Below, one piece after another: positions 21,123 to 51,986 of a stretch of DNA of 57,562 nt. Both the position numbers and the translations under genes were made by a program. The number at the start of each line of letters is the position of its first letter. Position 1 is the first letter of the stretch. This DNA comes from a virus (taxonomy: Duplodnaviria; Caudoviricetes): positions 1-57,562 of IMG/VR virus record IMGVR_UViG_3300020021_000179, one strand, 5' to 3'. The notes beneath the pieces are model-generated. The model saw only the letters and a program-made list of their open reading frames with translations. It searched no databases and was not told where the DNA came from.

Positions 21123-21125
21123 TAT

Positions 21126-26743: not shown

Positions 26744-28906
26744 ATGGTAACGCAAACGGAGATATTTGTTGAAGGGTATAAACTTGATATATCAGATGAT
26801 CTGGATTCACTGATTACGTTTGCAATTGACGATGTGAAAAACTTTGCCAGCAGGCAGACGGCATTCAGTAAAACGGTTGTCCTACCCGGAACGGCTAATA
26901 ACAATACCATCTTCGGAAGTATTTTCGACACGGGTATCAGCAACGTATATGATTCCGCCATGAAGAACGTCGGCATCAACTTCAATGCCATGGTATCGGC
27001 GGCATGTATCATCTTCCAGGATAACGTACAGACCTTCAAAGGAACGCTCAGGCTTCTGGAAATAGATATCGATAAGAAAAGAATCGAATACCAGGTAGCC
27101 CTTAACGGGAATCTTACTACGCTAAACGTTGCCCTTAGTTCAGGATATATTGCCGATCTGGATTTCTCTGCCTATAACCAGCTATGGACAGCGGCTAACA
27201 TTACCGCCAGCTGGGACAATCCGGGCGGCTCTGGTATATACTTTCCGCTCATGGACTACGGGAACTATTCGCAAGGAAAACATGATTGGGATTTCAGAAC
27301 CATGCGTCCCGCGTTGTACGTGAAAGAGTACATCGACAAGATGTTTGCTAGTGCTGGCTTCCGGTATTCATGCGATCTATTCAATACCCCCCGGTTTAAA
27401 TCCCTGGTTGTTCCCCATAATCAAAAAACACTTTTGAGTCAGGTCAGCAGAGTCCTGACGGCAAACGAAACCTCCAGCCATACGATTATCAATACCGGGA
27501 TCGGAACTACATCCGGATTACTTCCATGGGATACGATCATAGCCGGTGGATTCTCTTATTCACTCGGGACGTTCACCTATACACAGCCCACAGCCCTTAC
27601 GGCTATTATATCATGGAATCTGGGTGGTGACCGGTTTTCAGCAACGCCCGGGAACTTCATCGTCAACATACGCAGAAATGGATCAGTAATCGCAACCACT
27701 ACGATCACAACATTCAATGTACATATTACATGGCAATGGATTTCATCGGTATCCGTACCCGTAGTTACCGGAGATACCTTTGACGTGCAATTAGTTTACG
27801 GCGGGACAGGAACAGGTATGATCATCACGGCATCAAGTCCGAATCTGTTAACGATGGATTCAGCTATCCCTACGCTTCAGCCTGTGGATTATAACCAAAT
27901 GATTACGCTGAATGATATTTTACCACAGAATATCCGTAAGGTAGATTTCCTGGTATCTATTGTAACGCTGTTCAACCTGTATGTATACGAGGACAAATGG
28001 GATGAAACGCTCATTCATATCAGCCCGTTTATAAACTTCTATTCCGGAACCGATACCGTAGACTGGACATACAAATTAAACCGAGATGGATCGATCAGTA
28101 TAAAACCCATGTCGGAGTTAACCAGTAAGCTATACAATTTCAATTATGCCAGTGATTCTGATTACTGGAATGATTTATATAACAAGCGCTACAACCAGGT
28201 ATACGGTTCTTATATTTTCGATAGCCAGTTCCAGTTTGCCGATCAGACCAACACGGCTACGCTGATCTTTGCGCCCACACCACTGGTCGGATATGTAGGG
28301 GAAGAAAAGGTCTATGGAACACTATTCAAACGCACGGGTAATATAACGGGAGCCGGCGAAGAAAACGTGGATAGCGTTATCCGGATCATGCAGACCAAAA
28401 AGATCATGGGAGTCTCAACCTGGCAGATCAAGAACGTGGCAACGGTTCTCTTAAGCCTGAGCTATTATGGCTATGCCGGGCATTTCGATGATCCCGACGC
28501 GCCTACCAATGATTTGAACTTCGGGGCGCTGAATGAATTGTTCTTTATTCTGGCTACAGGCGACCTAACCAAAACACAGTTCAATGTGTACTGGTCGGCT
28601 TATATGGCTGAGATAACGAATAAGGATTCAAAACTATTAACCGCACAGTTCTATCTGAAGCCAAACGATATCTTCAATCTTGATTTTTCTCATTACGTCT
28701 ATGTGGACGGAAGCCTGTACCGGTTAAATAAAATCACTGATTACAACTGTACGCAACCGGCGCTTTGCACCGTAGAGCTTTTAAAAGTAATTAATACAAC
28801 CTATCAATACGTCACCTTCCCGCCAATCGTAGATACATTCAGATGGCTGGATGCGGACGGGTCGTTCGTTTTAGATTCCGATAACTCAGTAATACTACAT
28901 CAATAA
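26744..28906 (+). CDS. tail tip/baseplate hub structural protein
   Basis: FSKTVVLPGTANNN, YFPLMDYG, RPALYVK, LFNLYV, YRLNKITDY. Confidence 0.7.
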   Translation: MVTQTEIFVEGYKLDISDDLDSLITFAIDDVKNFASRQTAFSKTVVLPGTANNNTIFGSIFDTGISNVYDSAMKNVGINFNAMVSAACIIFQDNVQTFKGTLRLLEIDIDKKRIEYQVALNGNLTTLNVALSSGYIADLDFSAYNQLWTAANITASWDNPGGSGIYFPLMDYGNYSQGKHDWDFRTMRPALYVKEYIDKMFASAGFRYSCDLFNTPRFKSLVVPHNQKTLLSQVSRVLTANETSSHTIINTGIGTTSGLLPWDTIIAGGFSYSLGTFTYTQPTALTAIISWNLGGDRFSATPGNFIVNIRRNGSVIATTTITTFNVHITWQWISSVSVPVVTGDTFDVQLVYGGTGTGMIITASSPNLLTMDSAIPTLQPVDYNQMITLNDILPQNIRKVDFLVSIVTLFNLYVYEDKWDETLIHISPFINFYSGTDTVDWTYKLNRDGSISIKPMSELTSKLYNFNYASDSDYWNDLYNKRYNQVYGSYIFDSQFQFADQTNTATLIFAPTPLVGYVGEEKVYGTLFKRTGNITGAGEENVDSVIRIMQTKKIMGVSTWQIKNVATVLLSLSYYGYAGHFDDPDAPTNDLNFGALNELFFILATGDLTKTQFNVYWSAYMAEITNKDSKLLTAQFYLKPNDIFNLDFSHYVYVDGSLYRLNKITDYNCTQPALCTVELLKVINTTYQYVTFPPIVDTFRWLDADGSFVLDSDNSVILHQ

Positions 28907-35558: not shown

Positions 35559-37657
35559 TGGAAGACCCACAGGATAAAAATTTACCACAGATTGCCGTTG
35601 TCAAATTCTCCGACAGCAAGATTCCACTATTCAAAGAAACAAAGAATAAGGCTTACGTGCTTTATGGGGAAGACAATAAATACCCAGAATACTTAACGGG
35701 CCTGTTTGATAAGTCAGCCAAACACAATGCTATCGTTACCGGTAAGGCAGCTTATATCTTCGGCAACGGATTTGCCAATGGTGACTTTGAAATCAATGTG
35801 CTTGGGGAAACACTGAACGATTTAGCGCAAAAGGCAAGTCTGGATATAGAATCCTACGGCGGTTTCAAATGGGAAATCATTTTTAATTACCAGGGTATTG
35901 TGTCGGAAGTATACCACGTGGATTACTCTACGATCCGAAAGGCAAAGGACGGTGGATTTTATTTCAAAGAGAAATGGGGCGATCAGTTCGACCGCAACCC
36001 TGGCGAATACATACCCGCTTTCGATCCGGCGCATATCAATACCTCACAGATTTACGAGTATAACGAATACCGCCCGATGACCCGGTTCTATCCGCTTCCG
36101 GGATACATCGCCTGTAACAACTACATAGAAATCGATATTGAGATATCAAAGTTTCATCTGTCCTCCATCCGCAACGGTATGATGCCGTCCAAGATGATTC
36201 AGTTCTTCAAAGGTGAGCCTACGGAGGAAAAAAAGAACGAAGTAGAGAAAAGACTGGCCCGCAAGTTTGCCGGATCCGAAAATGCCGGTAAATTCTTATT
36301 GGTCTTTAACGATGCCAACAGTACAGGGTCGAAAGTTACGGTTGACGACCTGTCGGCTAACGAGCTGGATAAACAGTTTGATATCCTGAACAAAACATGC
36401 CAGCAGGAAATCTTTTCCGGCCACCGGGTGACTTCTCCGATGCTTTTTGGTATCAAGGAAGAAGGGCAGCTCGGAGGAGCAACAGAACTGGCTACATCGT
36501 ATGCGATTTTCCAGAACACGTATTCCAAACCGAAAGCACAGGTTCTTTCAAAAGAAATTCAATATCTCTTAAGCTTCACCAAGTTTAAAGGCCTTTATGA
36601 ACTCAGATCAACCGATCCGATAGGTGTAATTATAAACCCGCATGATGTTGTAAACTCACTCCCAAAGAAATTTGTATTTGAAAGCCTTGGCATACCGCCG
36701 GAAGATTGGGACGGCGAAAACATCGGGGCGGACAACCGGCCAACACAGACGATTCCTATCGCTCCGGCGACAACGATTGGCGCGCCCGATCCGGGAACGC
36801 TTTCTTCAGTTCCGCCAGCACCCGTTAACGAAAACATTAAAAACCTCACGGCAAAGCAGCATCAACAGATGTTGAGAATCATTCGTCAATATACCAAAGG
36901 ACTTCTCACCGCCGCAACGGCAAAAATATTACTACGCCAAGGTCTGGGACTTCCGGACAAAGATATCAATGAGATCCTGGGTATCCCCACAGCCTCAGGG
37001 GCGATGAGTTTCGATGCCGAGGAAGATCGCATCATCGGAATGTTTGACGCCGCTGGCGAGTCTAAGAATGACTACCAGATAGTAAAGTCTAAGCCCGTAA
37101 ACTTCGGAACGGATGTAGAAGCAGAATTTGACGAAGAAGTTTATATCAAGGAAGCGTTTTTAACCACTACGGATTTAACCGTTTCTGAATCTCGTATCCT
37201 GGATCTGATCAAAAAGGATAAACTCATTTCAGCCGTAACCATTTCCGGATTGATAGGCGAAACCGTTGCCTATGTGCAAGGGAAGATTGATGCACTCATC
37301 ACACGCGGATACATTCAACAGAATACTACCAGTGACGGGCTGGATGATATTATCGAACGCGTAGTAATCGAACAACCGGTTATTCCACCGACTACGATTG
37401 ACAACACGCCTATCAGCAAGATTTCTATCATGTATTCCTACGAAGGCCCGCAGGATTCCAGGAATAGGCCTTTCTGCGCCCGCATGATGGAGCTGAGAAG
37501 GCTTTACACAAGAAAAGACATTGAAGATATCAGCGCCCGGCTGGGGTATAGCGTATTCGACCGGCGCGGTGGATTCTGGACAAGGAAGGGAACCCATGAC
37601 ACTACCCCGTACTGCAGACATTCATGGAAAAGTAATATCGTAATTAAAAAAGGATGA
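35558..37657 (+). CDS. portal protein with C-terminal winged-HTH and MuF-like domain
   Basis: YGEDNKYP, SAKHNAI, YPLPGY, NGMMPS, GSENAGK, HRVTSPMLFGI; C-terminal SRNRPFC and CRHSW. Confidence 0.88.
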   Translation: MEDPQDKNLPQIAVVKFSDSKIPLFKETKNKAYVLYGEDNKYPEYLTGLFDKSAKHNAIVTGKAAYIFGNGFANGDFEINVLGETLNDLAQKASLDIESYGGFKWEIIFNYQGIVSEVYHVDYSTIRKAKDGGFYFKEKWGDQFDRNPGEYIPAFDPAHINTSQIYEYNEYRPMTRFYPLPGYIACNNYIEIDIEISKFHLSSIRNGMMPSKMIQFFKGEPTEEKKNEVEKRLARKFAGSENAGKFLLVFNDANSTGSKVTVDDLSANELDKQFDILNKTCQQEIFSGHRVTSPMLFGIKEEGQLGGATELATSYAIFQNTYSKPKAQVLSKEIQYLLSFTKFKGLYELRSTDPIGVIINPHDVVNSLPKKFVFESLGIPPEDWDGENIGADNRPTQTIPIAPATTIGAPDPGTLSSVPPAPVNENIKNLTAKQHQQMLRIIRQYTKGLLTAATAKILLRQGLGLPDKDINEILGIPTASGAMSFDAEEDRIIGMFDAAGESKNDYQIVKSKPVNFGTDVEAEFDEEVYIKEAFLTTTDLTVSESRILDLIKKDKLISAVTISGLIGETVAYVQGKIDALITRGYIQQNTTSDGLDDIIERVVIEQPVIPPTTIDNTPISKISIMYSYEGPQDSRNRPFCARMMELRRLYTRKDIEDISARLGYSVFDRRGGFWTRKGTHDTTPYCRHSWKSNIVIKKG

Positions 37658-38271
37658 GCGCAAATACACTCTTAATATCTGCCACGATGCTCAAAGAGCG
37701 CACATCCATGCACGGCAATGTGGATGACAAACTACTTTACCCTGATATCAAGTACGCCCAGGATGTTCATATAAAACCCGTTCTGGGTACAGCTCTTTAT
37801 GAAAAGCTACAGGCGCTTATCATAGGGGTTGGTGCAAACAATATTTCTGATCCTTCCCAGGCAGATTACAAATATTTAGTAGATACCTATCTGGTTGATG
37901 CGCTACTTTATTTTTCCTGGTCGTACCTGGTTATGTCCGTTTCTTTTCAACTCTGGAACAAAGGAGTCGTACGCAAACAAGGGGAGGATACCGAAGTACC
38001 CAGCATGGCCGAGATCATGGATCTGGCTAACGGGTATAAAAACAGGGCTGAGTATTATAACAACCGGATGAAACTGTTCATCCAGGATCAGTCGGCCAGG
38101 CTTCAGAAGTATCCTGAATACCGGATGCCCGGAAGTACCGTGGATACGGTTACGCCAGAACAAAGAAATTTTTCATCCCCAATATGGCTTGGTGGAAGTG
38201 ACTCGGATAACAGACCCGATAATCCATGGTGTAATTCCGGTGGATTTAACGGAGCGCCATATCATGATTAA
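37654..38271 (+). CDS. head-tail adaptor protein
   Basis: GNVDDK, AQDVHIKPVLGTALYEKL, NKGV, AEYY..RM; follows portal. Confidence 0.7.
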   Translation: MSANTLLISATMLKERTSMHGNVDDKLLYPDIKYAQDVHIKPVLGTALYEKLQALIIGVGANNISDPSQADYKYLVDTYLVDALLYFSWSYLVMSVSFQLWNKGVVRKQGEDTEVPSMAEIMDLANGYKNRAEYYNNRMKLFIQDQSARLQKYPEYRMPGSTVDTVTPEQRNFSSPIWLGGSDSDNRPDNPWCNSGGFNGAPYHD

Positions 38272-38335: not shown

Positions 38336-38794
38336 ATGCCATTAAGCCTAAACAGTGTTCAAAGCAAAATTGCTGCCGTGTGCATGAATCACAAGATGGT
38401 AAACAGCTTTTTCTACGGACTCAAAACGGATCTGCTAACCGCTAAGACGACCAAATACCCGGCGGCATTTCTGGATGACAACGGGTTTACGATCAGCCCC
38501 AGTGGTCACGCGATAACACTTATCTGGCGGCTGTGGTTTCTGGATCTGGTGAATGTAGCCAATTATTCAAACCAGAATGATGTGGACGTAATCAGTGACA
38601 TGCTGGGGATAGCAACGGACATAGTAACAGAATTGAACCGGGATTCAAACGGATGGATTCTGGCTGGTGGCGCAGGGCAACAGGTAGCAGAACAGGACAA
38701 CGATATGCCGTGGGGGGTGTATGTGGATTTTACCCTTCGATTCCCTTATGCTCAAAACAATTGTGAAGTACCAACAACGTCGCCCGTATTATGA
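38336..38794 (+). CDS. tail terminator-like protein
   Basis: NHKMVNSF, YP, DVISDMLGIATDIV, GVYVDF. Confidence 0.55.
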   Translation: MPLSLNSVQSKIAAVCMNHKMVNSFFYGLKTDLLTAKTTKYPAAFLDDNGFTISPSGHAITLIWRLWFLDLVNVANYSNQNDVDVISDMLGIATDIVTELNRDSNGWILAGGAGQQVAEQDNDMPWGVYVDFTLRFPYAQNNCEVPTTSPVL

Positions 38795-41346
38795 AGAAAC
38801 TATTTATTTTTTTACTTTCTTTAACTGCTTTCAGTTCAGCCTTCAGCCAGACGGGGAACGATACGACCAAATATAGCCGGTTTAAAAACTACGGCGACAG
38901 GAAGGCAAGATATTGGGCCGACTCGGTTCTGAATCTACCGAGCGATACTACGTTAAGCAAATGGGGATTGGCAAGGAAAGGATTGCTTCTTTATGTCGGC
39001 GACGGTACGCAGTGGGCACAAACGGGTGGAGGTGGTGGTGGTGGAAGTTTTACTGCCGATGAGCTGACGCTTCATCTTAGCGGCGCGAATGTCTTTTCTA
39101 TTAAATCCACTTATACCGGCCAGCCTTCTATCAACCAAGTGGGCGCACTAGCAAACGGATCTATCATTGCTGGATTTACCCCTATCGGAGACGGACAGAT
39201 ATCTAGTTCCGGTATATGGAATGCTAAATTAACCTCTACGCTTCCTTCTGGAAATATATTCGTAGGCAACGGATCTAATATTGCTACGGCGGTTTCTGTC
39301 AGTGGCGACGGAAGTTTTAATAACTCTGGCGTTTTAACACTAAGCAATACCACTGTTACCCCAGCCAGTTATACGAACGCCAATATAACCGTAGATTCAA
39401 AGGGTCGCGTAACGGCGGCGGCAAACGGTACAGGAGGCGGGGCAAGCACCCCATTCCCTGACAACTCCGCTATAGTTGAAGCGAATGCCGATCACACTAA
39501 ACTTCTTATCCTAAATGCCAGCTCAATCACCACGGCGACAACGCGAACGCTAACTTCCCCCGATGCATCTGGAACGATTGATCTACAAAACAACGCAGCG
39601 ACATTAACAAATAAATCTATTTCAGGATCGACCAATACGATCACCAATATATCGGAACCCGCGTTTCTATTCTCCAATATCACGACAGCCAATGCAACCA
39701 CTTCGCAGCACGGGCTATTGCCAAAACTCCCAAATGATACTACGCTATTCCTGAATGGACAAGGGGCATATACCGTCCCCTCTAAATTCATTTTACCTCA
39801 TACTTTAATTGGCATAGGTAATACCGCTGGATTTTTAGCTTACTCTACTTCTTTCTTTTATGATTCGTCGGCCTCTTATGCGCGGCTGGTTGGTGGCGTT
39901 GCCGGAACCGGGGATCAATTTGAAATCGGAACCAAATCCGCAAATACGCTTTGGTTAACCAATAATCCGGGATCGCTTCAGGCCAGTGTCAAAAGCAATT
40001 TCACGATGATCGCCCCTGCTCCGTCAGCAGCAGAATGCACCAACTGCACAGACATAGGAGGCACGGTTGGCAGCGGTGGAAACAACGTAAGCGTAGGGCA
40101 GCTTGCCGGTGGACGAAGCGGAAGCACGGGTGCAAACAATACGATCATCGGTTACCGGTCTGGAACTTTCGATAATACCCATCCGACCACAACAACCTTT
40201 AACGGAGATATTTTTCTAGGGTCTTTCACCGGGCCAGATAATACGCAGTTGAATCCTTCGATTTCCAATAGCACCATGATTGGGAACTCGATAAATATTG
40301 ACAGTAACAACGTTGCCATATTCGGGAATGCCAATCAGAGAATCATTTTAGGATTGACCAATGGTGCCACTCCCGGCGGCGTTACTTCTGATATGCTGGC
40401 TTTTTCGCCCATGGTAGGACAGATCTTTTACAACCAGGACAGCGCAGTCTATTGTATGTACAACGGAACCAAATGGATTAAATGGGGTGGTGGTTCGGGC
40501 GGAGGTGGTGGTGGCTTTGCCGATCCGCTTACAACGACTTATGATGTGATGTATCGCAACGGAAGCAACGTAACAACGAGGCTTCCCAAAGGAGCTAACA
40601 ATACCGTTCTGTTAACGGATAACAGTGGCGTGGTGGGATATAATCTTTTGATTAATTCCAACATGGCTACGATGCCAGCGCATACCCGCAAAGGGAATAT
40701 ATCCGGATCATCGGCCACACCAGCAGATATAACCAGCGCACAGGAAACAGCGGACTTGAATTTATTTACAACGTCTTTGCAGGGTCTTGTTCCGGCATCT
40801 ACTGGCGCGGTAACGGATTTCCTTCGGGGTGATAAGACATGGTCCCCACTACCTACAGATACTTTTTCACTAAGAACTCCGGGAACAGGTTCAGGAGCGT
40901 TAGCGCTTGCCTTTGCCAATGCAGGCGCTTTGGTCATCCCCAAGATTGCACCGGGAACGAATATCACATTCTCTGTTGCGGGGGATAGTTTGCTGACGAT
41001 AAATGCATCTGGTGGAAGCTCCGGCGTTGCCCTTGATGCCACACAAACTTATACAACAGGGGCAACACTTACAGTTACAAACGGAAATAATTACGTATAT
41101 GTAAATCCATCAACAGTACAGGCCGCCCTCACGATAACCCTTCCGACCACATGGCATAATTCAAATAACGTGTATATAATTTTTGGCGGCACAATAACGT
41201 CCGGTAATCCGGTTATCACTTCTTTTTCAGTAACAGGCGGAGTTGGGCAGACGAAAGTCGAAGCGGTAACGCCGTCAGGGACTTTTAATTCCGGCGAAGT
41301 CATTTTATATCATTTGAACGGGACTCTTGACAACAGAATATTATGA
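38791..41346 (+). CDS. tail fibre-like protein with Sec signal peptide
   Basis: MKKLFIFLLSLTAFSSAFS-Q; fibre repeats (VTPASYTNANITVDSKGRVTAAANG, TTRTLTSPDASGT, FLRGDKTW), poly-Gly hinges. Confidence 0.75.
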   Translation: MKKLFIFLLSLTAFSSAFSQTGNDTTKYSRFKNYGDRKARYWADSVLNLPSDTTLSKWGLARKGLLLYVGDGTQWAQTGGGGGGGSFTADELTLHLSGANVFSIKSTYTGQPSINQVGALANGSIIAGFTPIGDGQISSSGIWNAKLTSTLPSGNIFVGNGSNIATAVSVSGDGSFNNSGVLTLSNTTVTPASYTNANITVDSKGRVTAAANGTGGGASTPFPDNSAIVEANADHTKLLILNASSITTATTRTLTSPDASGTIDLQNNAATLTNKSISGSTNTITNISEPAFLFSNITTANATTSQHGLLPKLPNDTTLFLNGQGAYTVPSKFILPHTLIGIGNTAGFLAYSTSFFYDSSASYARLVGGVAGTGDQFEIGTKSANTLWLTNNPGSLQASVKSNFTMIAPAPSAAECTNCTDIGGTVGSGGNNVSVGQLAGGRSGSTGANNTIIGYRSGTFDNTHPTTTTFNGDIFLGSFTGPDNTQLNPSISNSTMIGNSINIDSNNVAIFGNANQRIILGLTNGATPGGVTSDMLAFSPMVGQIFYNQDSAVYCMYNGTKWIKWGGGSGGGGGGFADPLTTTYDVMYRNGSNVTTRLPKGANNTVLLTDNSGVVGYNLLINSNMATMPAHTRKGNISGSSATPADITSAQETADLNLFTTSLQGLVPASTGAVTDFLRGDKTWSPLPTDTFSLRTPGTGSGALALAFANAGALVIPKIAPGTNITFSVAGDSLLTINASGGSSGVALDATQTYTTGATLTVTNGNNYVYVNPSTVQAALTITLPTTWHNSNNVYIIFGGTITSGNPVITSFSVTGGVGQTKVEAVTPSGTFNSGEVILYHLNGTLDNRIL

Positions 41347-43805
41347 GAAATTTAATAACGATATTATTTGTTATGCTATGCGCCGTATCCTTTGGACAGG
41401 GCGTACACGTAACAGCAAACAACCCAGGACATCCTTATTATGCAAAAGATTGGGGATTCAAAGGAGATAGCTCGACAGACAATACACCGATATTCAGAAA
41501 TTTCATACTAATAACGCCTTCCGGTTCCGATCTGTGGTTTGACAACGGTAAATTTTTATTTTCCGACAGTGTGCTATTTAAAGGATACAGCATTCACATT
41601 CACGGGACAGGTATGGGTGGCGAAAAAGTATTTAGCGATACAACTGGGAATCGTTCTTTCCAGTGTGCGTTTTATTACACCAGTTCTACAAAAAACTTCC
41701 TCGTATTCGACACATCGGCGACAAATACATCGCCCGGAATTTCAATAGACAATATCGCTATCATCAATTCATCTTCGGTCGTACCAACGGCGGGAGCGGC
41801 GATAGTAGTTAAAAATAACGTGAACTCATTCCATTTCGAGAACCTTCGGGTACGCAGGTTCTTTATCGACTACGATTTCCAGGCAACTTATTACTGGTCG
41901 ATGGTCAACTGCCGGATCGACTGGCCGGTGAAAATAGGCATACGGCTTGGTAATAACATCGATGCCGATCTGGGTGACTGGTCTATCGTCGGTTGTATTT
42001 TCCAGTCGGGTTTCTACAATGTAACCGACTGCGTTGGGTTCCTTTGGCTGGCAGGCGGCGGCGGTAAGGTTGTAAACTGTAAATGGAATTCATCTGATTA
42101 TTCCACAACGCCGGCGCATCATTTCAGTAAATGTATTTACGCAACATTCACACAAGGGGCTACATCTGATTTCGTGTGTAATAATACTTCATTCGAAAAC
42201 TTCGACTCGACAGCCATCAAGATGAATAATCTTTCGGGTGGTCTTGTATCTCATATACAGATTGATAACGTTCAGATTTCACCGGTCAATAACGCATCCA
42301 GTGTTCAGTCGGCTATTGATTTAAATAATTTTGCGCTGGTAACAATTAATAATGCAGTAGGTCGAAACTATGTCGGATCAATTTCGCATCCCTTTATCCT
42401 GCTTCAAAATATTGTAAGCGGAAGTATCAGCGGTCAGATTTCAGTAGTGGATTATAGCAGCGTCTACAGTATGGTAAGCTGCACGAATGTTACGGCAGAT
42501 TATCTTCTTAGTAACCAGATTTCTCTTGCATCCGACGCCACAAAGAATGGTGTATTAGTTGGTACGCTTGGAATGGAGTGTACAGGTACGAACTCTTGTC
42601 TTGTTCAGGAAAACAGCACATATAGCGCCGGTTATACAAGAAATGCAACAGGATGGGCGGACAACTTTTTCTTTGGCGCTGGTGAAATAGCGGCTCAAAT
42701 GTCAACCGTATCAGCAGCGGGTGGAACAATACCAACATTTAAAATTCCACTCCGGTGGAATGCAACACAAGTGGCAATCGGTGGCGACGTACAAAGCCCA
42801 ACGCTTGCGGGCCTGTCTTCTTTATATGTCGATGCCACAAGTATAAAAGTGGCTGATTTTGCCGTTCCCAATGGCACTACATCCGATTCCGTTTTGGTTG
42901 GAACAACTTCAGCGGGAATCATGACGGTGAAGAAAGTCGCCCAGTCATCCATTGGCGGAAGCGGCCTTTCGGGTCTTACGGCTACTGATTTAATGGTAGC
43001 TCAAACATCTTCAAGTATCGGTGGAGATGCAACGCTTACCTACGTAACATCAACGGGTCAGCTTGCCTTAAATAAAAGCCAGAACGCGGGAACACAATTC
43101 ACAGTTACAAACAATAACGGCGGTACGGGTACTAATGCAACTGTCACCGTTACAGATCTAACACACTATGCACAGATAGGAATTTTCGGAACGGGGGCAA
43201 CGCCTTATGGCGCTGTCGGAGCTGATAACGGATACTTTTATTCCAACGCGCCGAAGTTCATTTTTATGAATGATAACGCATCTGGAGAAATAGATATCGC
43301 TATTGGAACAACACCATCAGCGCAGGATAAATTTAAGGCCAACGGATCAATTGTCTTTGGGCTTTATGGTGCGGGGACATTTACTGGAACCGCAACTAAA
43401 ACAGCGCAGTTCGATGCATCCGGAAATCTAATTGAAGGCGACGCCGTTTCCGGTGGCACATGGGCATCATCTCCGGCCAACACGACGAATATTGCATCCA
43501 GTTCCGAAACAAATGTAAGATATCACAGAGTCGGTAATACTGTTTTTTGTCAGGTTGGTTACGGGATTACGCCTTCACTTGGAAGCGGCGCGCAGACCGT
43601 TTTAACGCTCACACTTCCATTTAATACCGCAACCACAACGCAAGGGGCGGCGGGAACCGGCACTTGGTCAGATAATGCAGGAGCGGGTGTTTATACCGGG
43701 GCGGAAGTTCAGATACAATCGGCATCAACGGCAACAATACATTTTCAGGCAACATCAACGGCAGCCGGAATATTAACGGCATCATTCGCTTATAAATTAA
43801 ACTAA
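41343..43805 (+). CDS. tailspike-like parallel beta-helix (pectin-lyase fold) protein with Sec signal peptide
   Basis: MRNLITILFVMLCAVSFG-Q; AKDWGFKGDSSTDNT, Asn-rich helix repeats; C-terminal RYHRVGNTV...LTLPF receptor-binding-type domain. Confidence 0.75.
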   Translation: MRNLITILFVMLCAVSFGQGVHVTANNPGHPYYAKDWGFKGDSSTDNTPIFRNFILITPSGSDLWFDNGKFLFSDSVLFKGYSIHIHGTGMGGEKVFSDTTGNRSFQCAFYYTSSTKNFLVFDTSATNTSPGISIDNIAIINSSSVVPTAGAAIVVKNNVNSFHFENLRVRRFFIDYDFQATYYWSMVNCRIDWPVKIGIRLGNNIDADLGDWSIVGCIFQSGFYNVTDCVGFLWLAGGGGKVVNCKWNSSDYSTTPAHHFSKCIYATFTQGATSDFVCNNTSFENFDSTAIKMNNLSGGLVSHIQIDNVQISPVNNASSVQSAIDLNNFALVTINNAVGRNYVGSISHPFILLQNIVSGSISGQISVVDYSSVYSMVSCTNVTADYLLSNQISLASDATKNGVLVGTLGMECTGTNSCLVQENSTYSAGYTRNATGWADNFFFGAGEIAAQMSTVSAAGGTIPTFKIPLRWNATQVAIGGDVQSPTLAGLSSLYVDATSIKVADFAVPNGTTSDSVLVGTTSAGIMTVKKVAQSSIGGSGLSGLTATDLMVAQTSSSIGGDATLTYVTSTGQLALNKSQNAGTQFTVTNNNGGTGTNATVTVTDLTHYAQIGIFGTGATPYGAVGADNGYFYSNAPKFIFMNDNASGEIDIAIGTTPSAQDKFKANGSIVFGLYGAGTFTGTATKTAQFDASGNLIEGDAVSGGTWASSPANTTNIASSSETNVRYHRVGNTVFCQVGYGITPSLGSGAQTVLTLTLPFNTATTTQGAAGTGTWSDNAGAGVYTGAEVQIQSASTATIHFQATSTAAGILTASFAYKLN

Positions 43806-43808
43806 AAC

Positions 43809-44066
43809 ATGAAACTATTAACAATCGCTTTTTTATTTATTGGTTCATCGGGTTTCGCGCAGAAAAATATCGTAGCTCCGCCTATTCCACACGACACGAC
43901 TTATGTCCTGCAAATAGACGCGGCGATATGGCAAAAAATTCAGTATGTGATCAGTAAATCAAATGCCGAACATCTGGTATGGAAGGAAGTAGATGAATAT
44001 ATCAATCCCGCCGATCCCAAGAATAGAAAAATTAAAATGGTCGTTGATTCGGTAATAAAGAAATAG
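43809..44066 (+). CDS. small secreted protein
   Basis: MKLLTIAFLFIGSSGFA-Q. Confidence 0.6.
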   Translation: MKLLTIAFLFIGSSGFAQKNIVAPPIPHDTTYVLQIDAAIWQKIQYVISKSNAEHLVWKEVDEYINPADPKNRKIKMVVDSVIKK

Positions 44067-44068
44067 CT

Positions 44069-46654
44069 ATGAAGAAACTTCTTATCGTCCTTTTATCTCT
44101 GATCTCTTTCGCGCAGGCGCAAGTAACCACGACTTCCTATACCCGTCTGGCAGGTGACTACATACGTCCGAACGGAAGTTTCGAGCATTGGGGTACCTCA
44201 GATTGGGGGGCGTTCAATGCAACGCCGCAGATACCGGCCGGCAACTCGGTAGCAATGGATTATTACATGCGTCTGAACTGGACGGATATCGAATCCACAA
44301 CAACGCAAGGAACTTATTCGTGGACAATATTTGACAATGCGGTCAATCAATGCATAGATGCGGGCGCGATGTTTCACATGGCTGTCATGGATATGTGTTC
44401 CGCCTGCGGGCTTCCGGCCTTCGGGTATCCTACTTACTTGCATAATTTAATGCAAGCGGAAACAGCAAATTCCCGTGACTGGCAGGATGCCGATGGCGTG
44501 TGGATTCCAAACTGGAACTCGCCAAACTATATCGCACGGTATTCGGCTTTGATGACAGCCATTGCCGCTCATATCGCCGGGACTTCTCACTCAGGCCACA
44601 CCTACGCGTCTGCTTTTTCAAGTTGGGATATCCGTTCTTACGGAGACTTCGGGGAAGGGCATACCTACCCTTGGACAGGAACGGAGCCGACAGGCAGAAC
44701 AGCTACCACGGCTTCACTGGAGGCCTTGATTAATGCAGCGATTACCACGTTCCCGGGTGTGCAGATCACCAACCCGATGGCTTATTTCGATCACGGGCAT
44801 GCATCTGATCTTCCATTAGATTTCTGTTATTTCATGCTCACGGCTCAAAACGCTTATGGACATTTCGGATGGAGGCGCGACAACATCGGAGACGACGGGT
44901 ATAACGCTTATCTGAACGCCGATCCGAATACTTTTTCCGGACATCTGTTTCAGCCGATCATCATGGCCGCATGGCAGTTTGCGCCCATTGGCGGCGAACC
45001 GGCAAATGATTTAAATGGCACGAGTCGTTGCGGATCTATTCAGTGCGATCTGAATAACGAAATTAATATGTTCCACATTACCTATTGCGGCAATGGGAAC
45101 TATCCCATACCCACCAACGACCCGACAAACGGAACGGCTCTTGTAAATGCTATCCGGGCAGGCAATGCCATCATGGGTAATAAACTCGTACTGGATACGA
45201 CAAGAATAACGACTTCTCCCTCAACCGGCGGAACATTTAACATCAGTGCGTACTGGAAAAATATTAATGTCGCGCCCATTTACGAAAAGAAATGGAAGAT
45301 TATCTACGAACTCCGCAAGACCTCCGATCAGTCTGTTCAGTGGCGCGACACTTCCAAATTCAAACTTTATTTATTTCTGCCGCAGGCGAAAGACTCCGTA
45401 TTCAACGATAACTATTTACTCACCGGCGTGGCGGCATCTACCTACGATCTGCACATGTTCATCAAAGATTCAACTGGGTACAGACTTCCTTATCCTTTGG
45501 GGATCACCGGCAGACAAACAGACGGAAGCTATATCATTCGCGCGGGCATAGTAGTCAATACCAGCGGCGTACCAACGGCCAATGCCGGAGCCGATCAGAC
45601 GATTGCCCTTCCTTCTTCATCGGTAACGGTGGATGGATCGCTTTCCTCAGGTGCTTTAACGAGTTTTCTTTGGACTAAAATATCAGGGCCGAACACGCCT
45701 ACGATAGTAAGCCCTACAGCAATATCAACGATTATCGGTGGACTGATTCAAGGAACTTATGTTTTTCAACTTGGTGTTAATGGCGGCACGACCGGCTCTT
45801 TCATCGATCAGGTAACAGTTATTGTCAATCCCGCCCCACCGGCAGGAGCCAACGCCGGCAGCGATCAAACGATTACCCAACCGGCGGCATCTGTTGTTCT
45901 GGATGGATCTGGATCAACCGGGACAATCGCGTCTTACGCATGGACAAACGTCTCTGGGCCGGTCACGCCAGTTATTGCGACATCGACAAGCGTATCCACA
46001 ACCGTAACGGGAATGAGCGCGGTCGGTACTTACGTATTCCAACTTTCTGTAAACGGCGGTGTGTCGACCGATCAGGTAACGGTAAATGTAAATGCGCAAC
46101 CGTCAAACGGGGTTCACATATTTACAGCTCAGATCCCCGCAGGCGGAACAGGCGGTCCTGATGTAGCAGGAGGAATTGAACTTGGAGTTAAATTCAAATC
46201 AACACTCTCGGGATATATCACAGGAATACGTTTTTATAAGACTTCTGGCCTCACAGGAACCCATACCGGAGAGCTTTACACGGCAGCAGGCGTACGACTT
46301 GCTTCAGCCATATTCACCGCCGAATCGGCTACAGGATGGCAGAGCGTGTCTTTTGCGGCGCCCGTTGCAATCACCGCCGGAACGACTTATATCGCGGCTT
46401 ATTTAAGCAGCGCGGGACTTTATGTGAACGATGAATTTGGTTTGCAGGCAGCGATTACCAATTCACCACTTCAGGCATTGGCTGACGGCGCTTCCGGAGT
46501 AAACGGACTTTTCGATTATACCAGCGTCGCCAAAGTTCCGACATCATCTTTTCACTCGACAAATTATTGGGTGGACGTTATTTTTTCAGCAACCAATCCC
46601 AATAAAACCATTCATTTAAAATCAAGTCATATTTATTTTATACCCGCACCATGA
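44069..46654 (+). CDS. secreted glycoside-hydrolase-like protein (clan-A-like barrel, DUF4832, two K319L-type PKD, DUF4082)
   Basis: Signal MKKLLIVLLSLISFAQA-Q; YMRLNWTDIE, YGDFGEGH, GWRRD, APIGGEP; ANAGADQTI x2; ELGVKF, ITGIRFYK, NYWVDV. Confidence 0.8.
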   Translation: MKKLLIVLLSLISFAQAQVTTTSYTRLAGDYIRPNGSFEHWGTSDWGAFNATPQIPAGNSVAMDYYMRLNWTDIESTTTQGTYSWTIFDNAVNQCIDAGAMFHMAVMDMCSACGLPAFGYPTYLHNLMQAETANSRDWQDADGVWIPNWNSPNYIARYSALMTAIAAHIAGTSHSGHTYASAFSSWDIRSYGDFGEGHTYPWTGTEPTGRTATTASLEALINAAITTFPGVQITNPMAYFDHGHASDLPLDFCYFMLTAQNAYGHFGWRRDNIGDDGYNAYLNADPNTFSGHLFQPIIMAAWQFAPIGGEPANDLNGTSRCGSIQCDLNNEINMFHITYCGNGNYPIPTNDPTNGTALVNAIRAGNAIMGNKLVLDTTRITTSPSTGGTFNISAYWKNINVAPIYEKKWKIIYELRKTSDQSVQWRDTSKFKLYLFLPQAKDSVFNDNYLLTGVAASTYDLHMFIKDSTGYRLPYPLGITGRQTDGSYIIRAGIVVNTSGVPTANAGADQTIALPSSSVTVDGSLSSGALTSFLWTKISGPNTPTIVSPTAISTIIGGLIQGTYVFQLGVNGGTTGSFIDQVTVIVNPAPPAGANAGSDQTITQPAASVVLDGSGSTGTIASYAWTNVSGPVTPVIATSTSVSTTVTGMSAVGTYVFQLSVNGGVSTDQVTVNVNAQPSNGVHIFTAQIPAGGTGGPDVAGGIELGVKFKSTLSGYITGIRFYKTSGLTGTHTGELYTAAGVRLASAIFTAESATGWQSVSFAAPVAITAGTTYIAAYLSSAGLYVNDEFGLQAAITNSPLQALADGASGVNGLFDYTSVAKVPTSSFHSTNYWVDVIFSATNPNKTIHLKSSHIYFIPAP

Positions 46655-47061
46655 AAAAACTAATCATTATAGGACTTCTTATTGTTGCCGCCATTTCTGT
46701 AACATACGCACAAACGGTCATCAGTCCATCCACGACAGTGCTGGCCTTTAGCGCAATGAACACGGGTCAATACCGGTTTATCAACTCCGGCGATACAGTG
46801 TATTTCAATAAGGATACACTAGGAATTAAAATCGTTTCGATTACAGTTCACGATACAATTCCAAAGATTTGCCCGGTTTGTAAGGTATTTTCTAAAGCGG
46901 ATACTGTAGCTATTCAGGCATTGAAAATATGCCCTCCGCCAATTATCTGTCCGGCATGTCCGCCAATACCAAAACAGAGAACAGCGACAGGAATTAGCTG
47001 GGATATTATTTTAAATAAGAAAACAATCACGTACGATAACGGAACTACATCAACCCTATGA
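46651..47061 (+). CDS. small secreted Cys/Pro-rich protein
   Basis: Signal ...VTYA-Q; CPVC and CPPPIICPACPP. Confidence 0.6.
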   Translation: MKKLIIIGLLIVAAISVTYAQTVISPSTTVLAFSAMNTGQYRFINSGDTVYFNKDTLGIKIVSITVHDTIPKICPVCKVFSKADTVAIQALKICPPPIICPACPPIPKQRTATGISWDIILNKKTITYDNGTTSTL

Positions 47062-47234
47062 CACATACGAATCCAACTGGCGTTCCTGGACTTTTATTAA
47101 TATCCGTTAGTTGGATACTTCACTTTATGAATCTATTCGATAAGGCTAACATAACCTTTATTCTTGGCGCCGTAGCGTCACTGGCAGCAATTATTTATTA
47201 CGTCATACAAATTAAAAAATCACTTAAAAGCTAA
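47058..47234 (+). CDS. putative holin (58 aa, 2 TM; not in ORF track)
   Basis: MTHTNPTGVPGLLLISVSWIL...FILGAVASLAAIIYYVIQIKKSLKS; basic C-terminus; ATGA-coupled. Confidence 0.55.
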   Translation: MTHTNPTGVPGLLLISVSWILHFMNLFDKANITFILGAVASLAAIIYYVIQIKKSLKS

Positions 47235-47238
47235 ATCA

Positions 47239-47556
47239 ATGACACAGATTGTAACAACAAAAACATCGGCAAATATTCTTGGGCTAAGCGATTGGCTTAA
47301 AGGGTTTTTAGTAGCCATTATTTCCTCCGTGCTGACGGTAATTTATACCAGTTTTAGTGCAGGTTCTTTGACTTTCGAATATAAATCAATCGCACTCGTT
47401 GCCGGAACATCAGGAATAGGGTATCTGCTAAAGAACGGATTTTCGCCAGCCGTAACTACGATAACGCCACCTCCTGGAACTGTTGCTGGTGAAACAGTTA
47501 CCGTTCAGATTCCAGCACCGGGTAAGACAATTACAGAAACAATTACAAAACCATAA
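47239..47556 (+). CDS. putative holin (2 TM)
   Basis: DWLKGFLVAIISSVL, IALVAG, GYLLKN. Confidence 0.55.
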   Translation: MTQIVTTKTSANILGLSDWLKGFLVAIISSVLTVIYTSFSAGSLTFEYKSIALVAGTSGIGYLLKNGFSPAVTTITPPPGTVAGETVTVQIPAPGKTITETITKP

Positions 47557-47570: not shown

Positions 47571-48047
47571 ATGTCAATTTTCACAAAAGCATGGGACTGG
47601 CTAAAAGGCGTTTTCGGATCAGTAGGACAGTCAGCAGATTCAATCGCAATCGTTATCACAGAACAAATTCAGTCAGCATTGAAATCGGGCGTTGCGGGAT
47701 TTCTGGCAACGGTCATTGATGGCCTGACAAAATCCAACGTTGGGGATGAAGTCCTGAACCTCTTAAAGAAATATATTCCGGAAGTGCTGGCCGTTGAGCT
47801 TGCCATTCAGGGATTGCCCGCCAATCCAACGGAAGCTGATATTTTAGCTTTCGAACAGCGTGTACTTGCTGCATTTGGCGTTACAGATAACACATCAAAG
47901 CTATACACAACTGTCGCCGCGCAATTATATGGGAGACTTCAGGAAGCGTTGCTTGACAAGAAATTAACCTTCGCCGAATGTGTTGCTATCGTTGAAGGAA
48001 CTTATCAGGATTATGTAGGAGATCAGAACGCCACGCCGGATGCATAA
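47571..48047 (+). CDS. hypothetical helical protein
   Basis: Amphipathic N-terminus MSIFTKAWDWLKGVF; lysis-region context. Confidence 0.55.
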   Translation: MSIFTKAWDWLKGVFGSVGQSADSIAIVITEQIQSALKSGVAGFLATVIDGLTKSNVGDEVLNLLKKYIPEVLAVELAIQGLPANPTEADILAFEQRVLAAFGVTDNTSKLYTTVAAQLYGRLQEALLDKKLTFAECVAIVEGTYQDYVGDQNATPDA

Positions 48048-49653
48048 ATGGTTCTTCATATTATTTCTTGTCGGATGTTCAACGCACGTTCCACCGATCA
48101 TCTACGGGCCTACTCCGGTTTCACCGGTTCCCACGCCCATGCCTGTAATAATTGACACGACAGCTTCGGCGATTGACACGACTCAGTTTGCATTCAACGG
48201 AGAGATCAGTGTAAAATATTTCGGTGCAAAAGGTGACGGCATAAGCGATGATTATATACCTATTCAAAACGCATGTAATTATTGTATCGTTCATCCATGG
48301 GTATGCTCGACCGTTGGTATTCCAATTGGCCATTACCGTTCTTCTCAATCAATTAAACTCAGCAATCATGGAAAATTCTTTACGGTCAGACTACAGGGGG
48401 ATGTATCAAACAAATCGGCAAGCGATCCTTACCTGTCGCAGATTACTTTCGACAATATAGCTGGGTACTGCATTGGCATCCAACTTGGCCGAAGTATCGA
48501 AATCGAAAATCTTACCCTTATTGGAAAATACGGATTCCCAAATACGGTTAACAATCAAAACATTGGAACTCTTAAATTCTCAGATTGGGCTGATGGATCA
48601 GTTGTCGATTCGAGATATGCACCGTACGCCGGAATCAGTATCGACCCAGAAGCAAATGCCAGCGGGTCGCGTGGCGGGACATCAGACGTTACAATAAAGA
48701 ACTGCGCGATCAAACAATTTATGGTGGGCATTTGCCTTACACCAAATGCATCTACGCTTAACGATGAAATAGCAAACATTCTGGAAGATGATATTGAAGC
48801 CTGCCGGGTGGCAATAGCGATAGGTCAGGATCAATCGAAAACAATAAATATAAAAGGCCTGAAAGTCTGGGCCTCCGTTCACACGATCATTGACGGGATA
48901 AGTTATGGCCGAGGCACCGGTGGCGGATCGTTGTTTTGCGAAAACTGGAATGTTGCCGGAAATGTGAATGAGCTCTTTAATCTCAGCACAACTACTTTTC
49001 CGCTTTCCTGTAAGGATATTTATTCTGAAAGTCTTTTCCGTTTTGGATATGTCGGTAACGGTGCGGGAACAAACTGCTTGAACTGCCAGATTGATTTTCT
49101 TTCCGGACCTGGTTGGCCTGCTCCAGATTATCTGATCGCCGGGCAGATCAATTTCAGCGGTGGAATGCTCAGATATTACGACAACAGCCAGACTCACCGC
49201 ATGAACCTTTCGAATGTAAGCGGGGCTTTCCGGGATATGACCATGAACGTGCAGCCGTTAGTCATTGGCCTTTACGGCTCACCGAACCCACAACCCACAT
49301 TCGATAATGTCCATAATTACTACGGAAACGGTTTTATTAACCCACACGATACCTTAATTTATTTCCACACGACGCCAACGCTCATCATAGACCGCATTAA
49401 TTGGATCGGTAGCGTGGTTGTGCCAGACCTGGTTGCAAAACAGTCTGCGATCGGGGATTATATCATTGCGCAACCAGCCAGCTGGGGAAGGGGCGCGTAC
49501 GACCCTTATCTGAACGCTCAGAATTTGAATACCATTCAGATCGGACGCATCACATCAATTTCAGGCGACACTTTAAAACTTGACGATATAGGCATTAACA
49601 CATATTCAGGATCTGGATACGATTTAATGTTCTTGGGTAAGATTGTTCACTAA
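48040..49653 (+). CDS. lipoprotein with Pectate_lyase_3-type beta-helix domain
   Basis: MHKWFFILFLVG-C; Pro-rich tether; SVKYFGAKGDGISDDYIPIQNA. Confidence 0.75.
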   Translation: MHKWFFILFLVGCSTHVPPIIYGPTPVSPVPTPMPVIIDTTASAIDTTQFAFNGEISVKYFGAKGDGISDDYIPIQNACNYCIVHPWVCSTVGIPIGHYRSSQSIKLSNHGKFFTVRLQGDVSNKSASDPYLSQITFDNIAGYCIGIQLGRSIEIENLTLIGKYGFPNTVNNQNIGTLKFSDWADGSVVDSRYAPYAGISIDPEANASGSRGGTSDVTIKNCAIKQFMVGICLTPNASTLNDEIANILEDDIEACRVAIAIGQDQSKTINIKGLKVWASVHTIIDGISYGRGTGGGSLFCENWNVAGNVNELFNLSTTTFPLSCKDIYSESLFRFGYVGNGAGTNCLNCQIDFLSGPGWPAPDYLIAGQINFSGGMLRYYDNSQTHRMNLSNVSGAFRDMTMNVQPLVIGLYGSPNPQPTFDNVHNYYGNGFINPHDTLIYFHTTPTLIIDRINWIGSVVVPDLVAKQSAIGDYIIAQPASWGRGAYDPYLNAQNLNTIQIGRITSISGDTLKLDDIGINTYSGSGYDLMFLGKIVH

Positions 49654-51274: not shown

Positions 51275-51525
51275 CGGAAGAAAGACCCAACCCCGATGTA
51301 GTTCACAGGAAACTAGGAAAGCACAAAGCTGACGGGCTGGCTTGGGTGGATGAAAACATTATTGAAATAGATAGTAGAATAACAGGGTTTAGGCAACTGG
51401 AAGCCGTCGTTCATGAAATGATGCACATCCTAAATCCGAAATGGGGTGAAATAAAAATTGACGGCCATGCCAAACGGATGGCAAAAATATTATGGGATCA
51501 AAACTATAGGAGGGTAATGCTATGA
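51271..51525 (+). CDS. minimal zincin-like HExxH protein
   Basis: GLAW, IEID, VVHEMMH. Confidence 0.6.
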   Translation: MTEERPNPDVVHRKLGKHKADGLAWVDENIIEIDSRITGFRQLEAVVHEMMHILNPKWGEIKIDGHAKRMAKILWDQNYRRVML

Positions 51526-51986
51526 CACCAATCACAAAATCAGCTTTAGATATCGCTATATCTCAAGTCGGACAAACCGAAAGCCCGCTAGGGAGCAATT
51601 GGGGTCATCCCGTGCAGGATTATCTGGCGACTGTTGGACTTCATTTCCCGGCTAGTTGGTGCATGGCGTTTCTGTATTGGTGTTTTGACAAAGCCGCATT
51701 GAAATTAAATACTGTCAGCCCACTGGATAGAACCGGTGGCGTACACCTTCAATGGAATGCGCGAAAAGAAAACCAGATTTATTCCGGGCCACAGGTCGGA
51801 GATATTTTCATCATGGATCTTGGGCATCAATTGGGACATACAGGAATCATCGAATCACTCAATCCTGACAATAGTTTAAACACTATAGAAGGGAATACAA
51901 ATCATGATGGATCTAGAAATGGCGTTGATGTAGAGAAAAAAAGAAGACAACAGGGGAAACCAATTATCGGATATCTGCGCTTTTAA
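51522..51986 (+). CDS. endolysin, CHAP domain
   Basis: AISQVG, SNWG, WCMAF (Cys), GHTGII (His), TIEGNTN. Confidence 0.9.
   Translation: MTPITKSALDIAISQVGQTESPLGSNWGHPVQDYLATVGLHFPASWCMAFLYWCFDKAALKLNTVSPLDRTGGVHLQWNARKENQIYSGPQVGDIFIMDLGHQLGHTGIIESLNPDNSLNTIEGNTNHDGSRNGVDVEKKRRQQGKPIIGYLRF

Follow-up and report, generated by a model that had tools for sequence, protein, structure and literature searches.

The window analysed here (the entire IMG/VR virus record IMGVR_UViG_3300020021_000179, i.e., 57,562 bases of a tailed virus, with a CheckV completeness of 100%) contains, at positions 38791-47061, a module of five consecutive, tightly packed open reading frames (ORFs) on the + strand, each encoding a type-I leader for the host Sec export machinery followed by Gln. 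Export and cleavage before this Gln are strongly supported and, judging from the sequence, export is close to certain. On balance, we favour the view that the module represents receptor-binding and glycan-handling gear routed through the host Sec pathway; the evidence also leans, if slightly, towards fibres, enzymes and small partners being exported, processed in the periplasm and added at lysis to tails built in the cytoplasm. The features of the module, and of a sixth exported protein encoded shortly after it, are the following (a hyphen before Q marks the predicted cleavage site):

38791..38847, + strand: signal peptide of gene 1, 19 residues, MKKLFIFLLSLTAFSSAFS followed by Q (AFS-Q), from direct reading and a leader heuristic
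38848..39030, + strand: mature N-terminal domain of gene 1 (N-domain), about 60 residues, ending in a Gly-rich linker, from alignments A1 and A5
38791..41346, + strand: gene 1, predicted exported mosaic tail fibre, 851 residues, from the domains of its homologues
41343..43805, + strand: gene 2, predicted exported right-handed beta-helix protein, 820 residues, 18-residue leader LCAVSFG-Q
43809..44066, + strand: gene 3, small predicted exported protein, 85 residues, 17-residue leader GSSGFA-Q
44069..46654, + strand: gene 4, predicted exported enzyme, 861 residues, 17-residue leader LISFAQA-Q
46651..47061, + strand: gene 5, small predicted exported Cys-rich protein, 136 residues with 5 Cys, 20-residue leader AISVTYA-Q
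48040..49653, + strand: sixth predicted exported protein, a lipoprotein, 537 residues with 12 Cys

The initial annotation had described five consecutive genes in which a signal peptide precedes Gln, and all five are indeed present (5/5): each leader has one or two Lys/Arg residues, a hydrophobic core, small residues at positions -3 and -1 and Gln at +1. Leaders were called with a crude heuristic of our own (not SignalP), which requires a hydrophobic window and a small-x-small site together with one or more Lys/Arg and the absence of Asp/Glu. Of the 94 greedily called ORFs of the window, 10 are flagged, including all five module genes; the others are the lipoprotein gene at 48040, the ORFs at 10109, 12897 and 13246, and one minus-strand ORF, the last of which is probably spurious, while 13246 has rather the look of a membrane anchor. 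If 8 positives were scattered randomly over 85 genes (both numbers being our estimates for the real genes), a run of at least five leader genes would be expected with P ~1.5e-4. There is a 4-nt overlap with the preceding stop at the starts 38791, 41343 and 46651, and a gap of 3 nt at 43809 and of 2 nt at 44069, so that the leaders must be translated unless downstream starts deleting conserved sequence are assumed. The possibility that the true starts lie downstream of the leaders, i.e., a gene-start artefact, is thus rejected on the grounds of these overlaps together with the conservation of the leaders. For gene 2, the ESM Atlas record takes residue 11 as the initial Met (window 41343-41375), a start that cuts the n-region of the leader, and automatic gene calls can therefore hide leaders of this kind. 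The initial annotation was also right in considering Gln at +1 typical of signal peptidase I substrates of Bacteroidota: this Q-rule is established for Bacteroidota Sec substrates (PMC10653852), together with a glutaminyl cyclase. In the five proteins, cleavage and the formation of pyroglutamate would be expected to follow the same scheme.

The N-domain of gene 1 provides a way of asking how strictly the leader is kept. Its consensus is roughly Q-x-N-D-T-T-K-Y ... Y-G ... R ... V-L-x-x-P-x-D-T-T-x-S-K-x-G-L-A ... L-Y-V-G-N-G-x-x-W, a Gly-rich linker follows, and leaders precede it in 15 of 15 aligned gene 1 relatives. In order to avoid circularity, profiles were built from the mature N-domain without the leader. 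In IMG/VR, the leader-free profile retrieved 17 loci in about six lineages; a leader ending in a small-x-small site and Gln lies directly upstream of the N-domain in every one of them (17/17, two of these leaders being visible only from an internal ATG overrun by the ORF caller), and all 17 viral loci are found only in phage tail or connector regions. The same profile, searched against 1.84 billion cluster representatives, matched 346 at E<=1e-3 and 208 at E<=1e-10, and leaders, Gln and glycosylation sequons were counted in the best 150 of the 346. The match begins between residues 17 and 26 in nearly all of these 150. Leaders can be recognised in 148 (139 by the heuristic and 9 more on inspection, the latter having escaped it because Glu occupies position 2 or because the start is truncated or too long), and the remaining two begin inside the domain; Gln follows one of [AGSCT] at the end of the leader in 145/150, with a small-x-small site in nearly all, and the leader sequences themselves differ widely. 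That Gln is maintained while the leader drifts can be understood only on the assumption of a cut at this point by signal peptidase I. Signal peptides first noticed in a single genome thus turn out to be kept, along with Gln, in related phages, and the N-domain can be proposed as a candidate virion-docking domain.

The position of the module is that of receptor-binding proteins. The gene at 38336, encoding the tail terminator, is the final conserved virion gene ahead of it, and small membrane-protein genes follow it. Among the close relatives, G002 (2/2), G004 (3/3) and G003 (5/5) have a leader on each of the large genes that separate the terminator-like gene from those for the small membrane proteins, three of these leaders being seen only from an internal ATG and one having Ala at +1. 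Other relatives show a different picture: leaders occur in three of the five slot genes of a Ferruginibacter prophage and in none of the three of Mucilaginibacter L033, the slot of L036 holds one leader-bearing and one leaderless gene, and in a Chitinophagaceae metagenome-assembled genome (MAG; L037/L038) the slot gene encodes a 929-residue leaderless fibre with a different N-terminus. Since leaderless canonical fibres occupy this place in relatives, the module of the window can be said to occupy the receptor-binding slot, for which leader-bearing and leaderless fibres are two alternative solutions adopted by a single phage group. The leader-bearing 707-residue fibre of G009 (a complete genome of 33.9 kb with terminal repeats) is the sole long variable fibre gene of that phage. 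In the lineage of L027-L030 and G006, a 267-residue gene with leader and N-domain lies inside the tail module, between a 754-residue homologue of the 26744 tail protein discussed below and a tape-measure-like gene, and a second N-domain gene, of 693 residues, follows the terminator; in L017, a leader-bearing fibre follows a tape-measure-like gene and a 449-residue gene. The coordinates of the leaderless and the N-domain genes in the relatives are:

L033 12587-16150: leaderless fibre in the slot
L037 8382-11171: leaderless fibre in the slot
L038 12873-13907: leaderless fibre in the slot
L028 5866-6669: N-domain gene, 267 residues (the same gene in L027, L029 and L030)
L047 1813-3894: N-domain gene, 693 residues

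The homologies of gene 1 are those of a tail fibre. In all, 130 proteins matched it at E<=0.001, each covering a part of the gene, and the 120 listed homologues carry Peptidase_S74, DUF2793, T7 tail fibre, collagen, C1q and SGNH esterase segments; leaders were called by the heuristic in 20 of these 120, the remainder having ordinary fibre N-termini. This partial, mosaic coverage by tail-fibre families identifies gene 1 as a mosaic tail fibre. Other searches added little: a tblastn search of gene 1 against cultured-phage records gave one short match, phmmer searches of genes 1 and 2 against the PDB gave nothing meaningful, and a word-index search with the first 100 residues of gene 1 returned 5 proteins, too few for a survey. 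Gene 2 aligns over residues ~20-450 with Pect-lyase_RHGA_epim and tailspike clusters in an Atlas structure search (template modelling score, TM, 0.47-0.83), the Atlas model having a modest confidence of its own (predicted TM, pTM, 0.48). No Pfam match was found for gene 2 at E<=0.01, Head_binding included, and its helix begins from about residue 20, straight after the leader, which implies that an N-terminal particle-binding domain is lacking. The module therefore resembles the canonical fibres and tailspikes assembled in the cytoplasm in several respects, i.e., the fibre-body segments of gene 1 (Peptidase_S74, T7 tail-fibre, DUF2793 and collagen proteins), the beta-helix body of gene 2 (as in P22-type tailspikes), the receptor-binding slot and the mosaicism, in which the N-terminus is conserved and the distal parts vary. 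It differs from them in the cleavable Sec leader placed before the N-domain and in the absence of a head-binding domain from gene 2.

Gene 4 appears to be a host-type secreted enzyme of host derivation. In Pfam it gives a weak DUF4832 match, two PKD domains and DUF4082, and its 100 non-self homologues, 29-76% identical to it, lie in many cases on long bacterial contigs. A Por_Secre_tail domain, i.e., the sorting domain of the type IX secretion system (T9SS), is present in 25 of these 100 and was confirmed in P0129 and P0181, but it is absent from gene 4 (Pfam and NCBIfam) and from the phage homologue P0125, so that the protein is predicted to stop in the periplasm. The T9SS-secreted DUF4832/PKD/DUF4082 proteins of Bacteroidota are thus like gene 4 in sequence (35-50% identity over most of the length) and in leader type, and differ in that gene 4 and P0125 end with DUF4082 and lack Por_Secre_tail. 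Scans of IMG/VR with the single proteins of genes 2 and 4 retrieved no close relatives. Genes 3 and 5 gave no family match; small exported genes placed after genes 2 and 4, they occupy what would be the usual positions of fibre chaperones, and gene 3 is possibly, from its position, a partner or chaperone of gene 2. Bacterial lipoproteins are marked by a short leader closing with a lipobox of the consensus [LVI][ASTVI][GAS]C; in the 48040 protein the leader ends in LVG-C, with Cys at residue 13, and a Pro-rich linker comes next. The same protein shows a weak pectate-lyase/tailspike-like beta-helix signal (PF12708 at 1.6e-5, below the cut-off of that family, and weak PHROGs tail-spike matches). 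The idea of a fibre/spike module put forward in the initial annotation is therefore sustained for gene 1, and needs revision for gene 2, which lacks a particle-binding domain, and for gene 4, an enzyme.

The statement that the genome has no long fibre gene devoid of a signal peptide also has to be qualified, because of the following gene:

26744..28906, + strand: leaderless tail protein of 720 residues, 39-65% identical in relatives

The 26744 family is virus-only, some of its clusters carry C1q or SprB, and the protein is a candidate tail-tip or hub and a candidate docking site for the exported fibre. Its AlphaFold2 model, based on a 5-sequence alignment, is too poor for use (mean predicted local distance difference test, pLDDT, 42), and neither 26744 nor 38336 matched any PDB sequence in profile searches. 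The gene after it (28906-29268, 120 residues) has a C-terminal domain of about 75 residues, ending in ...ERFxILYKN, which is also found as a C-terminal extension of long tail terminators in relatives, the terminator of the window being the short version. The long terminators with this extension are:

L003 14747-15472
L016 5231-5950
L019 5243-5947
L021 4698-5429

A 'split fibre', with the 28906 protein as its cytoplasmic anchor, was rejected as a general model, since L031, L007 and G009 have leader-bearing fibres and lack that gene.

Two cultured phages of Cellulophaga baltica allow a comparison as regards the destination of such proteins. In phi18:3 (NC_021794), gp085, gp086 and gp087 have leaders ending in GYS-Q, VSA-Q and LNA-Q, and in GenBank they are described, respectively, as virion structural, structural and tail protein, 'based on experimental MS/MS proteomics analysis' (MS/MS standing for tandem mass spectrometry). 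In phi10:1 (NC_021802), gp091-095 form a run of five consecutive genes with leader and Gln, four of which (gp091-094) have the MS/MS annotation, including a 'pectate lyase' and a 'tail fiber protein'. The runs lie, as in the window, after tail genes and before small membrane proteins and endolysin, and the hosts belong to the same phylum; the phages belong, however, to other families (Assiduviridae and Pachyviridae) and lack the N-domain. By analogy, these annotations offer indirect support for the membership of leader-bearing proteins in the virion.

It might be objected that the exported proteins are helpers that never join the virion and act in the periplasm or on the surface of the infected cell, adsorption being entrusted to the 26744 protein; possible roles would be the masking or destruction of receptors, against the loss of progeny on debris or against superinfection, or the cutting of capsule or exopolysaccharide for release. 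A number of observations agree with this explanation: gene 2, gene 4 and the lipoprotein resemble enzymes and lack a particle-binding domain, the relatives of gene 4 are bacterial secreted proteins, a quarter of them (25/100) with the T9SS sorting domain, the module adjoins the lysis genes, a conserved leaderless tail protein of 720 residues is available and the exported tail-fibre-like trimers of Bdellovibrio, likewise with a conserved domain next to the signal peptide, are cellular and not viral (PMC10769870). Nevertheless, we regard it as rather unlikely. Gene 1 is a typical mosaic receptor-binding fibre placed in the slot where relatives have leaderless ones, its N-domain is confined to phage tail or connector contexts (17/17 viral loci), the complete relative G009 has no other variable fibre and, by analogy, the leader-bearing proteins of the two cultured phages are annotated in virions.

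A further set of observations concerns the compartment in which the proteins of the module might reside. According to PMC12871550, the O-glycosylation motif of Bacteroidota is D-S/T-A/L/V/I/M/T and is restricted to non-cytoplasmic proteins. The sequence P-x-D-S/T is present in 150/150 N-domains, and the residue after it is T in 51, I in 40, V in 35, L in 8, A in 6, M in 1 and another one in 9, so that the N-domain sequon falls within the O-glycosylation set in 141/150. Across the window, 31 motifs were counted in the 8 leader-bearing proteins vs. 13.9 expected, and 19 in 16 leaderless proteins vs. ~18 expected. Gene 3 has 2 sequons (0.2 expected) and gene 5 has 4 (0.6 expected, a number reached in 3/500 shuffles). 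Two further proteins of the early region, a 133-residue exported protein with a leader ending in LHA-Q (10109-10510) and a 97-residue lipoprotein (12897-13190), have 4 sequons each vs. 0.5 expected, reached in 0 and 1 of 500 shuffles, respectively. As for Cys, genes 1-5 and the lipoprotein contain 39 in 3290 residues, and 15 leaderless virion and packaging proteins contain 29 in 4939 residues, i.e., they are about half as dense. Sequon and Cys counts can be read as modest, consistent signs of a periplasmic life, and in the reading favoured here the proteins of the module would probably be O-glycosylated, the invariant site of the N-domain included. The window also contains sugar-handling genes, at 14950-22389 and 51989-53501 (a GT1-like glycosyltransferase, a C-methyltransferase, a polysaccharide pyruvyl transferase and a GT2-like glycosyltransferase), whose targets could be either host surface glycans or the exported proteins of the phage itself.

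These data also bear on the idea that the leaders are translated but unused for export, with fibres assembling in the cytoplasm and the leader either staying on the protein, in a structural or membrane-tethering function, or being cut off by some other protease. To our knowledge, in all the other tailed phages studied the fibres are assembled in the cytoplasm, which speaks for this idea, as does the start chosen by one gene caller, truncating the leader of gene 2. We nonetheless judge it improbable, since Gln after [AGSCT] (145/150) and the small-x-small site have been retained despite the drift of the leader, the enrichment in sequons is confined to leader-bearing proteins, and genes 1-5 and the lipoprotein have roughly double the Cys density of the leaderless virion and packaging proteins.

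The genes of the window are nearly all on the + strand, and no tRNA genes were found in it. Besides the module, the following features were recognised:

22818: small terminase, from family searches
23237: large terminase, from family searches
24643, 25254, 26744 (720 residues), 28906 and 29261: conserved proteins without a family name
29947: tape-measure-like protein, from family searches
32114: protease, from family searches
33508: capsid protein, from family searches
35558-37657: portal, from PHROGs and Pfam
37654..38271, + strand: DUF6712 protein (Pfam 2.6e-17), directly 3' of the portal gene
38336..38794, + strand: tail terminator with a lambda gpU-like fold, 152 residues, from AlphaFold2 and Foldseek
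47058-47234, + strand: small membrane-type protein with hydrophobic segments
47239-47556, + strand: small membrane-type protein with hydrophobic segments
47571-48047, + strand: small membrane-type protein with hydrophobic segments
51522..51986, + strand: CHAP-domain endolysin without a leader (Pfam CHAP 2.7e-12; PHROGs endolysin)

The AlphaFold2 model of the 38336 protein (12-sequence alignment, pLDDT 76.9, pTM 0.69), compared with the PDB by means of Foldseek, matched lambda gpU (3fzb_H, E 3.2e-5, TM 0.62/0.71) and the terminator of phage Mu (9khy, E 1.3e-5); there were 29 matches at E<=0.001, and the top-ranked matches listed are terminators nearly throughout. The presence of a terminator and of a tape-measure-like protein indicates a long-tailed phage. 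From its position only, the DUF6712 protein might be the head-tail adaptor. The three small membrane-type proteins gave only a weak 'membrane protein' match in PHROGs; similar proteins lie in relatives between the fibre genes and endolysin/spanin-like genes, and they can be called holin-like by position only. The initial annotation had set the module between adaptor and terminator on one side and holins on the other; an adaptor-position gene and the terminator fold are found there, and the term holin has to be softened. Two other genes of the window may be mentioned: one for a protein of the dATP/dGTP pyrophosphohydrolase family (11504-12181, PF04447, 4e-21), which may hint at the manipulation of the nucleotide pool or of DNA bases, and one for a pentapeptide-repeat protein fused to DUF5758 (8543-9196).

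Alignment of the portal against genome contigs disclosed 10 loci of relatives. One lies in a Ferruginibacter MAG, inside a contig of 1.46 Mb, and is therefore a prophage; others belong to Mucilaginibacter pedocola and to Chitinophagaceae and Sphingobacteriaceae MAGs, and three of the 10 lie on short contigs binned to other phyla. The occurrence of portal relatives in Bacteroidota genomes places the host among Bacteroidota. A tblastn search of the capsid protein against cultured-phage records gave no match. The other explanation contemplated in the initial annotation, namely that the module is lysogenic-conversion cargo expressed from a prophage and remodelling the surface of the lysogen, is disfavoured and appears very improbable: even though a relative is integrated in the Ferruginibacter contig, so that the wider clade can be temperate, a helix-turn-helix gene lies on the minus strand of the window and lom of lambda, a gene for an exported outer-membrane protein, is likewise located among tail-fibre genes, no integrase was found among the ORFs scanned by Pfam and PHROGs family searches, the gaps within the module (-4 to +3 nt) leave no room for a promoter of its own (as judged from spacing, without a scan for Bacteroidota-type promoters), the genes form part of the late structural-lysis operon and run in its direction, and the same arrangement recurs in the cultured Cellulophaga phages.

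Coming back to a module that supplies exported parts to the virion, the course of events might be as follows. The proteins would be made late, from the structural operon, and would cross the inner membrane, where signal peptidase I (signal peptidase II for the lipoprotein) would take off the leader, exposing Gln, which the host glutaminyl cyclase would convert to pyroglutamate; O-glycosylation would probably follow at the D-S/T-x motifs, including the invariant site of the fibre N-domain. The proteins of the module would fold in the periplasm, heads and tails being assembled in the cytoplasm. When lysis breaches the envelope, the two pools would mix and the fibre would dock on the tail via its conserved 60-residue N-domain, with the enzymes either riding on the fibre or acting free. 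Attachment to the virion is likely for the gene 1 fibre and possible for the products of genes 2 and 4 and the lipoprotein, and that docking takes place after lysis is what we infer. The periplasmic-fibre interpretation of the initial annotation is thus upheld as far as the signals for export and cleavage and the receptor-binding slot are concerned, and its post-lysis docking step is retained only conditionally.

Several points weigh against this reconstruction. Virion presence is annotated from experiment in the Cellulophaga phages, whereas the phage of the window and its clade are known from sequence alone; BLASTP of the Cellulophaga proteins against those of the window showed no similarity, so that these phages lend support by analogy, and detection by MS/MS is compatible with a co-purifying free protein and silent on the removal of the leader. 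The leader calls derive from the crude heuristic and from conservation. The excess of sequons is found mainly in the small proteins, and genes 1, 2 and 4 are not significant singly. No particle-binding domain can be recognised in the products of genes 2 and 4 or in the lipoprotein, the family of gene 4 is one of secreted proteins of bacteria, and the leaderless 26744 protein could be sufficient for adsorption, leaving the exported set an accessory role. Moreover, no docking partner has emerged: in the one complex prediction performed, which had no controls and gives no verdict on docking, the mature N-domain (A5) and the 38336 protein (A2) scored 0.02 vs. a mark of 0.32; being the head-proximal terminator, the 38336 protein is a poor choice of partner. 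Likelier candidates would be the proteins at 25254, 26744 and 28906, the last two of which are those put forward in the initial annotation.

The single parts of this system, i.e., tail fibre, beta-helix spike or enzyme, secreted glycan-active protein and Q-rule Sec leaders, are known, and no description of their combination was found in the literature; a literature search for leader-bearing fibres of tailed phages retrieved no publication. What appears to be new is the family of leader-coupled N-domains, the conserved sequon within it and the way in which leader-bearing and leaderless fibres naturally replace one another in that slot. Filamentous phages provide an example of virion proteins synthesised with signal peptides: pIII and pVIII of Ff are inserted through the inner membrane before joining the particle. 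The coat proteins of Ff are similar in this respect, but filamentous phages are assembled at the membrane and extruded through it without lysis, whereas here a tailed phage of lytic type would receive periplasmic parts at lysis. The Llp lipoprotein of T5 and Lom and Bor of lambda are phage-encoded, Sec-exported envelope proteins, some of them encoded beside tail-fibre genes; they differ in being small single genes with exclusion or host-fitness roles, and not fibre or spike homologues filling the slot. The nearest architectural parallel in print (PMC10769870) is represented by the mosaic adhesive trimer (MAT) fibres of Bdellovibrio bacteriovorus, cellular trimers that are exported and have a domain of ~130 residues after the signal peptide. 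Like gene 1, they are described there as combining a signal peptide, a conserved N-terminal domain and a mosaic body similar to phage tail fibres; unlike it, they are proteins of a predatory bacterium and not phage-encoded, with a domain of ~130 residues vs. ~60 here, so that the likeness is architectural. The export of MAT fibres, as reported there, implies that such trimers can fold after Sec export.

Extended beyond a single window, these data suggest, tentatively and with more doubt than the reading of the module itself, that many tailed phages of Bacteroidota build their particles in two compartments, with fibres, small partners and glycan-cutting enzymes that are exported, capped by pyroglutamate and O-glycosylated (at one conserved site within the 60-residue docking domain, among others), the fibres being docked only at lysis. 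If this were true, the working assumption of an all-cytoplasmic assembly of tailed phages would be overturned and a post-lysis assembly step would be added to the phage life cycle; particles would be non-infectious until lysis, and their organ of host recognition would be a periplasmic product glycosylated by the host. Receptor-binding proteins could then bear host-made pyroglutamate, O-glycans and disulfides, altering their stability, specificity and antigenicity. The phages concerned would be those of soil, freshwater, marine and probably gut Bacteroidota. Annotation would have to change, a signal peptide being often read as evidence against a role in the virion; to obtain such fibres as recombinant proteins, export or a Bacteroidota host would be required, and the engineering of host range would have to reckon with the export route. 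A handle for searching for such fibres is given by a leader, Gln, about 60 residues with P-x-D-T-x and ...G-N-G-x-x-W, and a Gly-rich linker, and the relatives with leaderless fibres (L033, L037 and L038) represent a natural contrast set.

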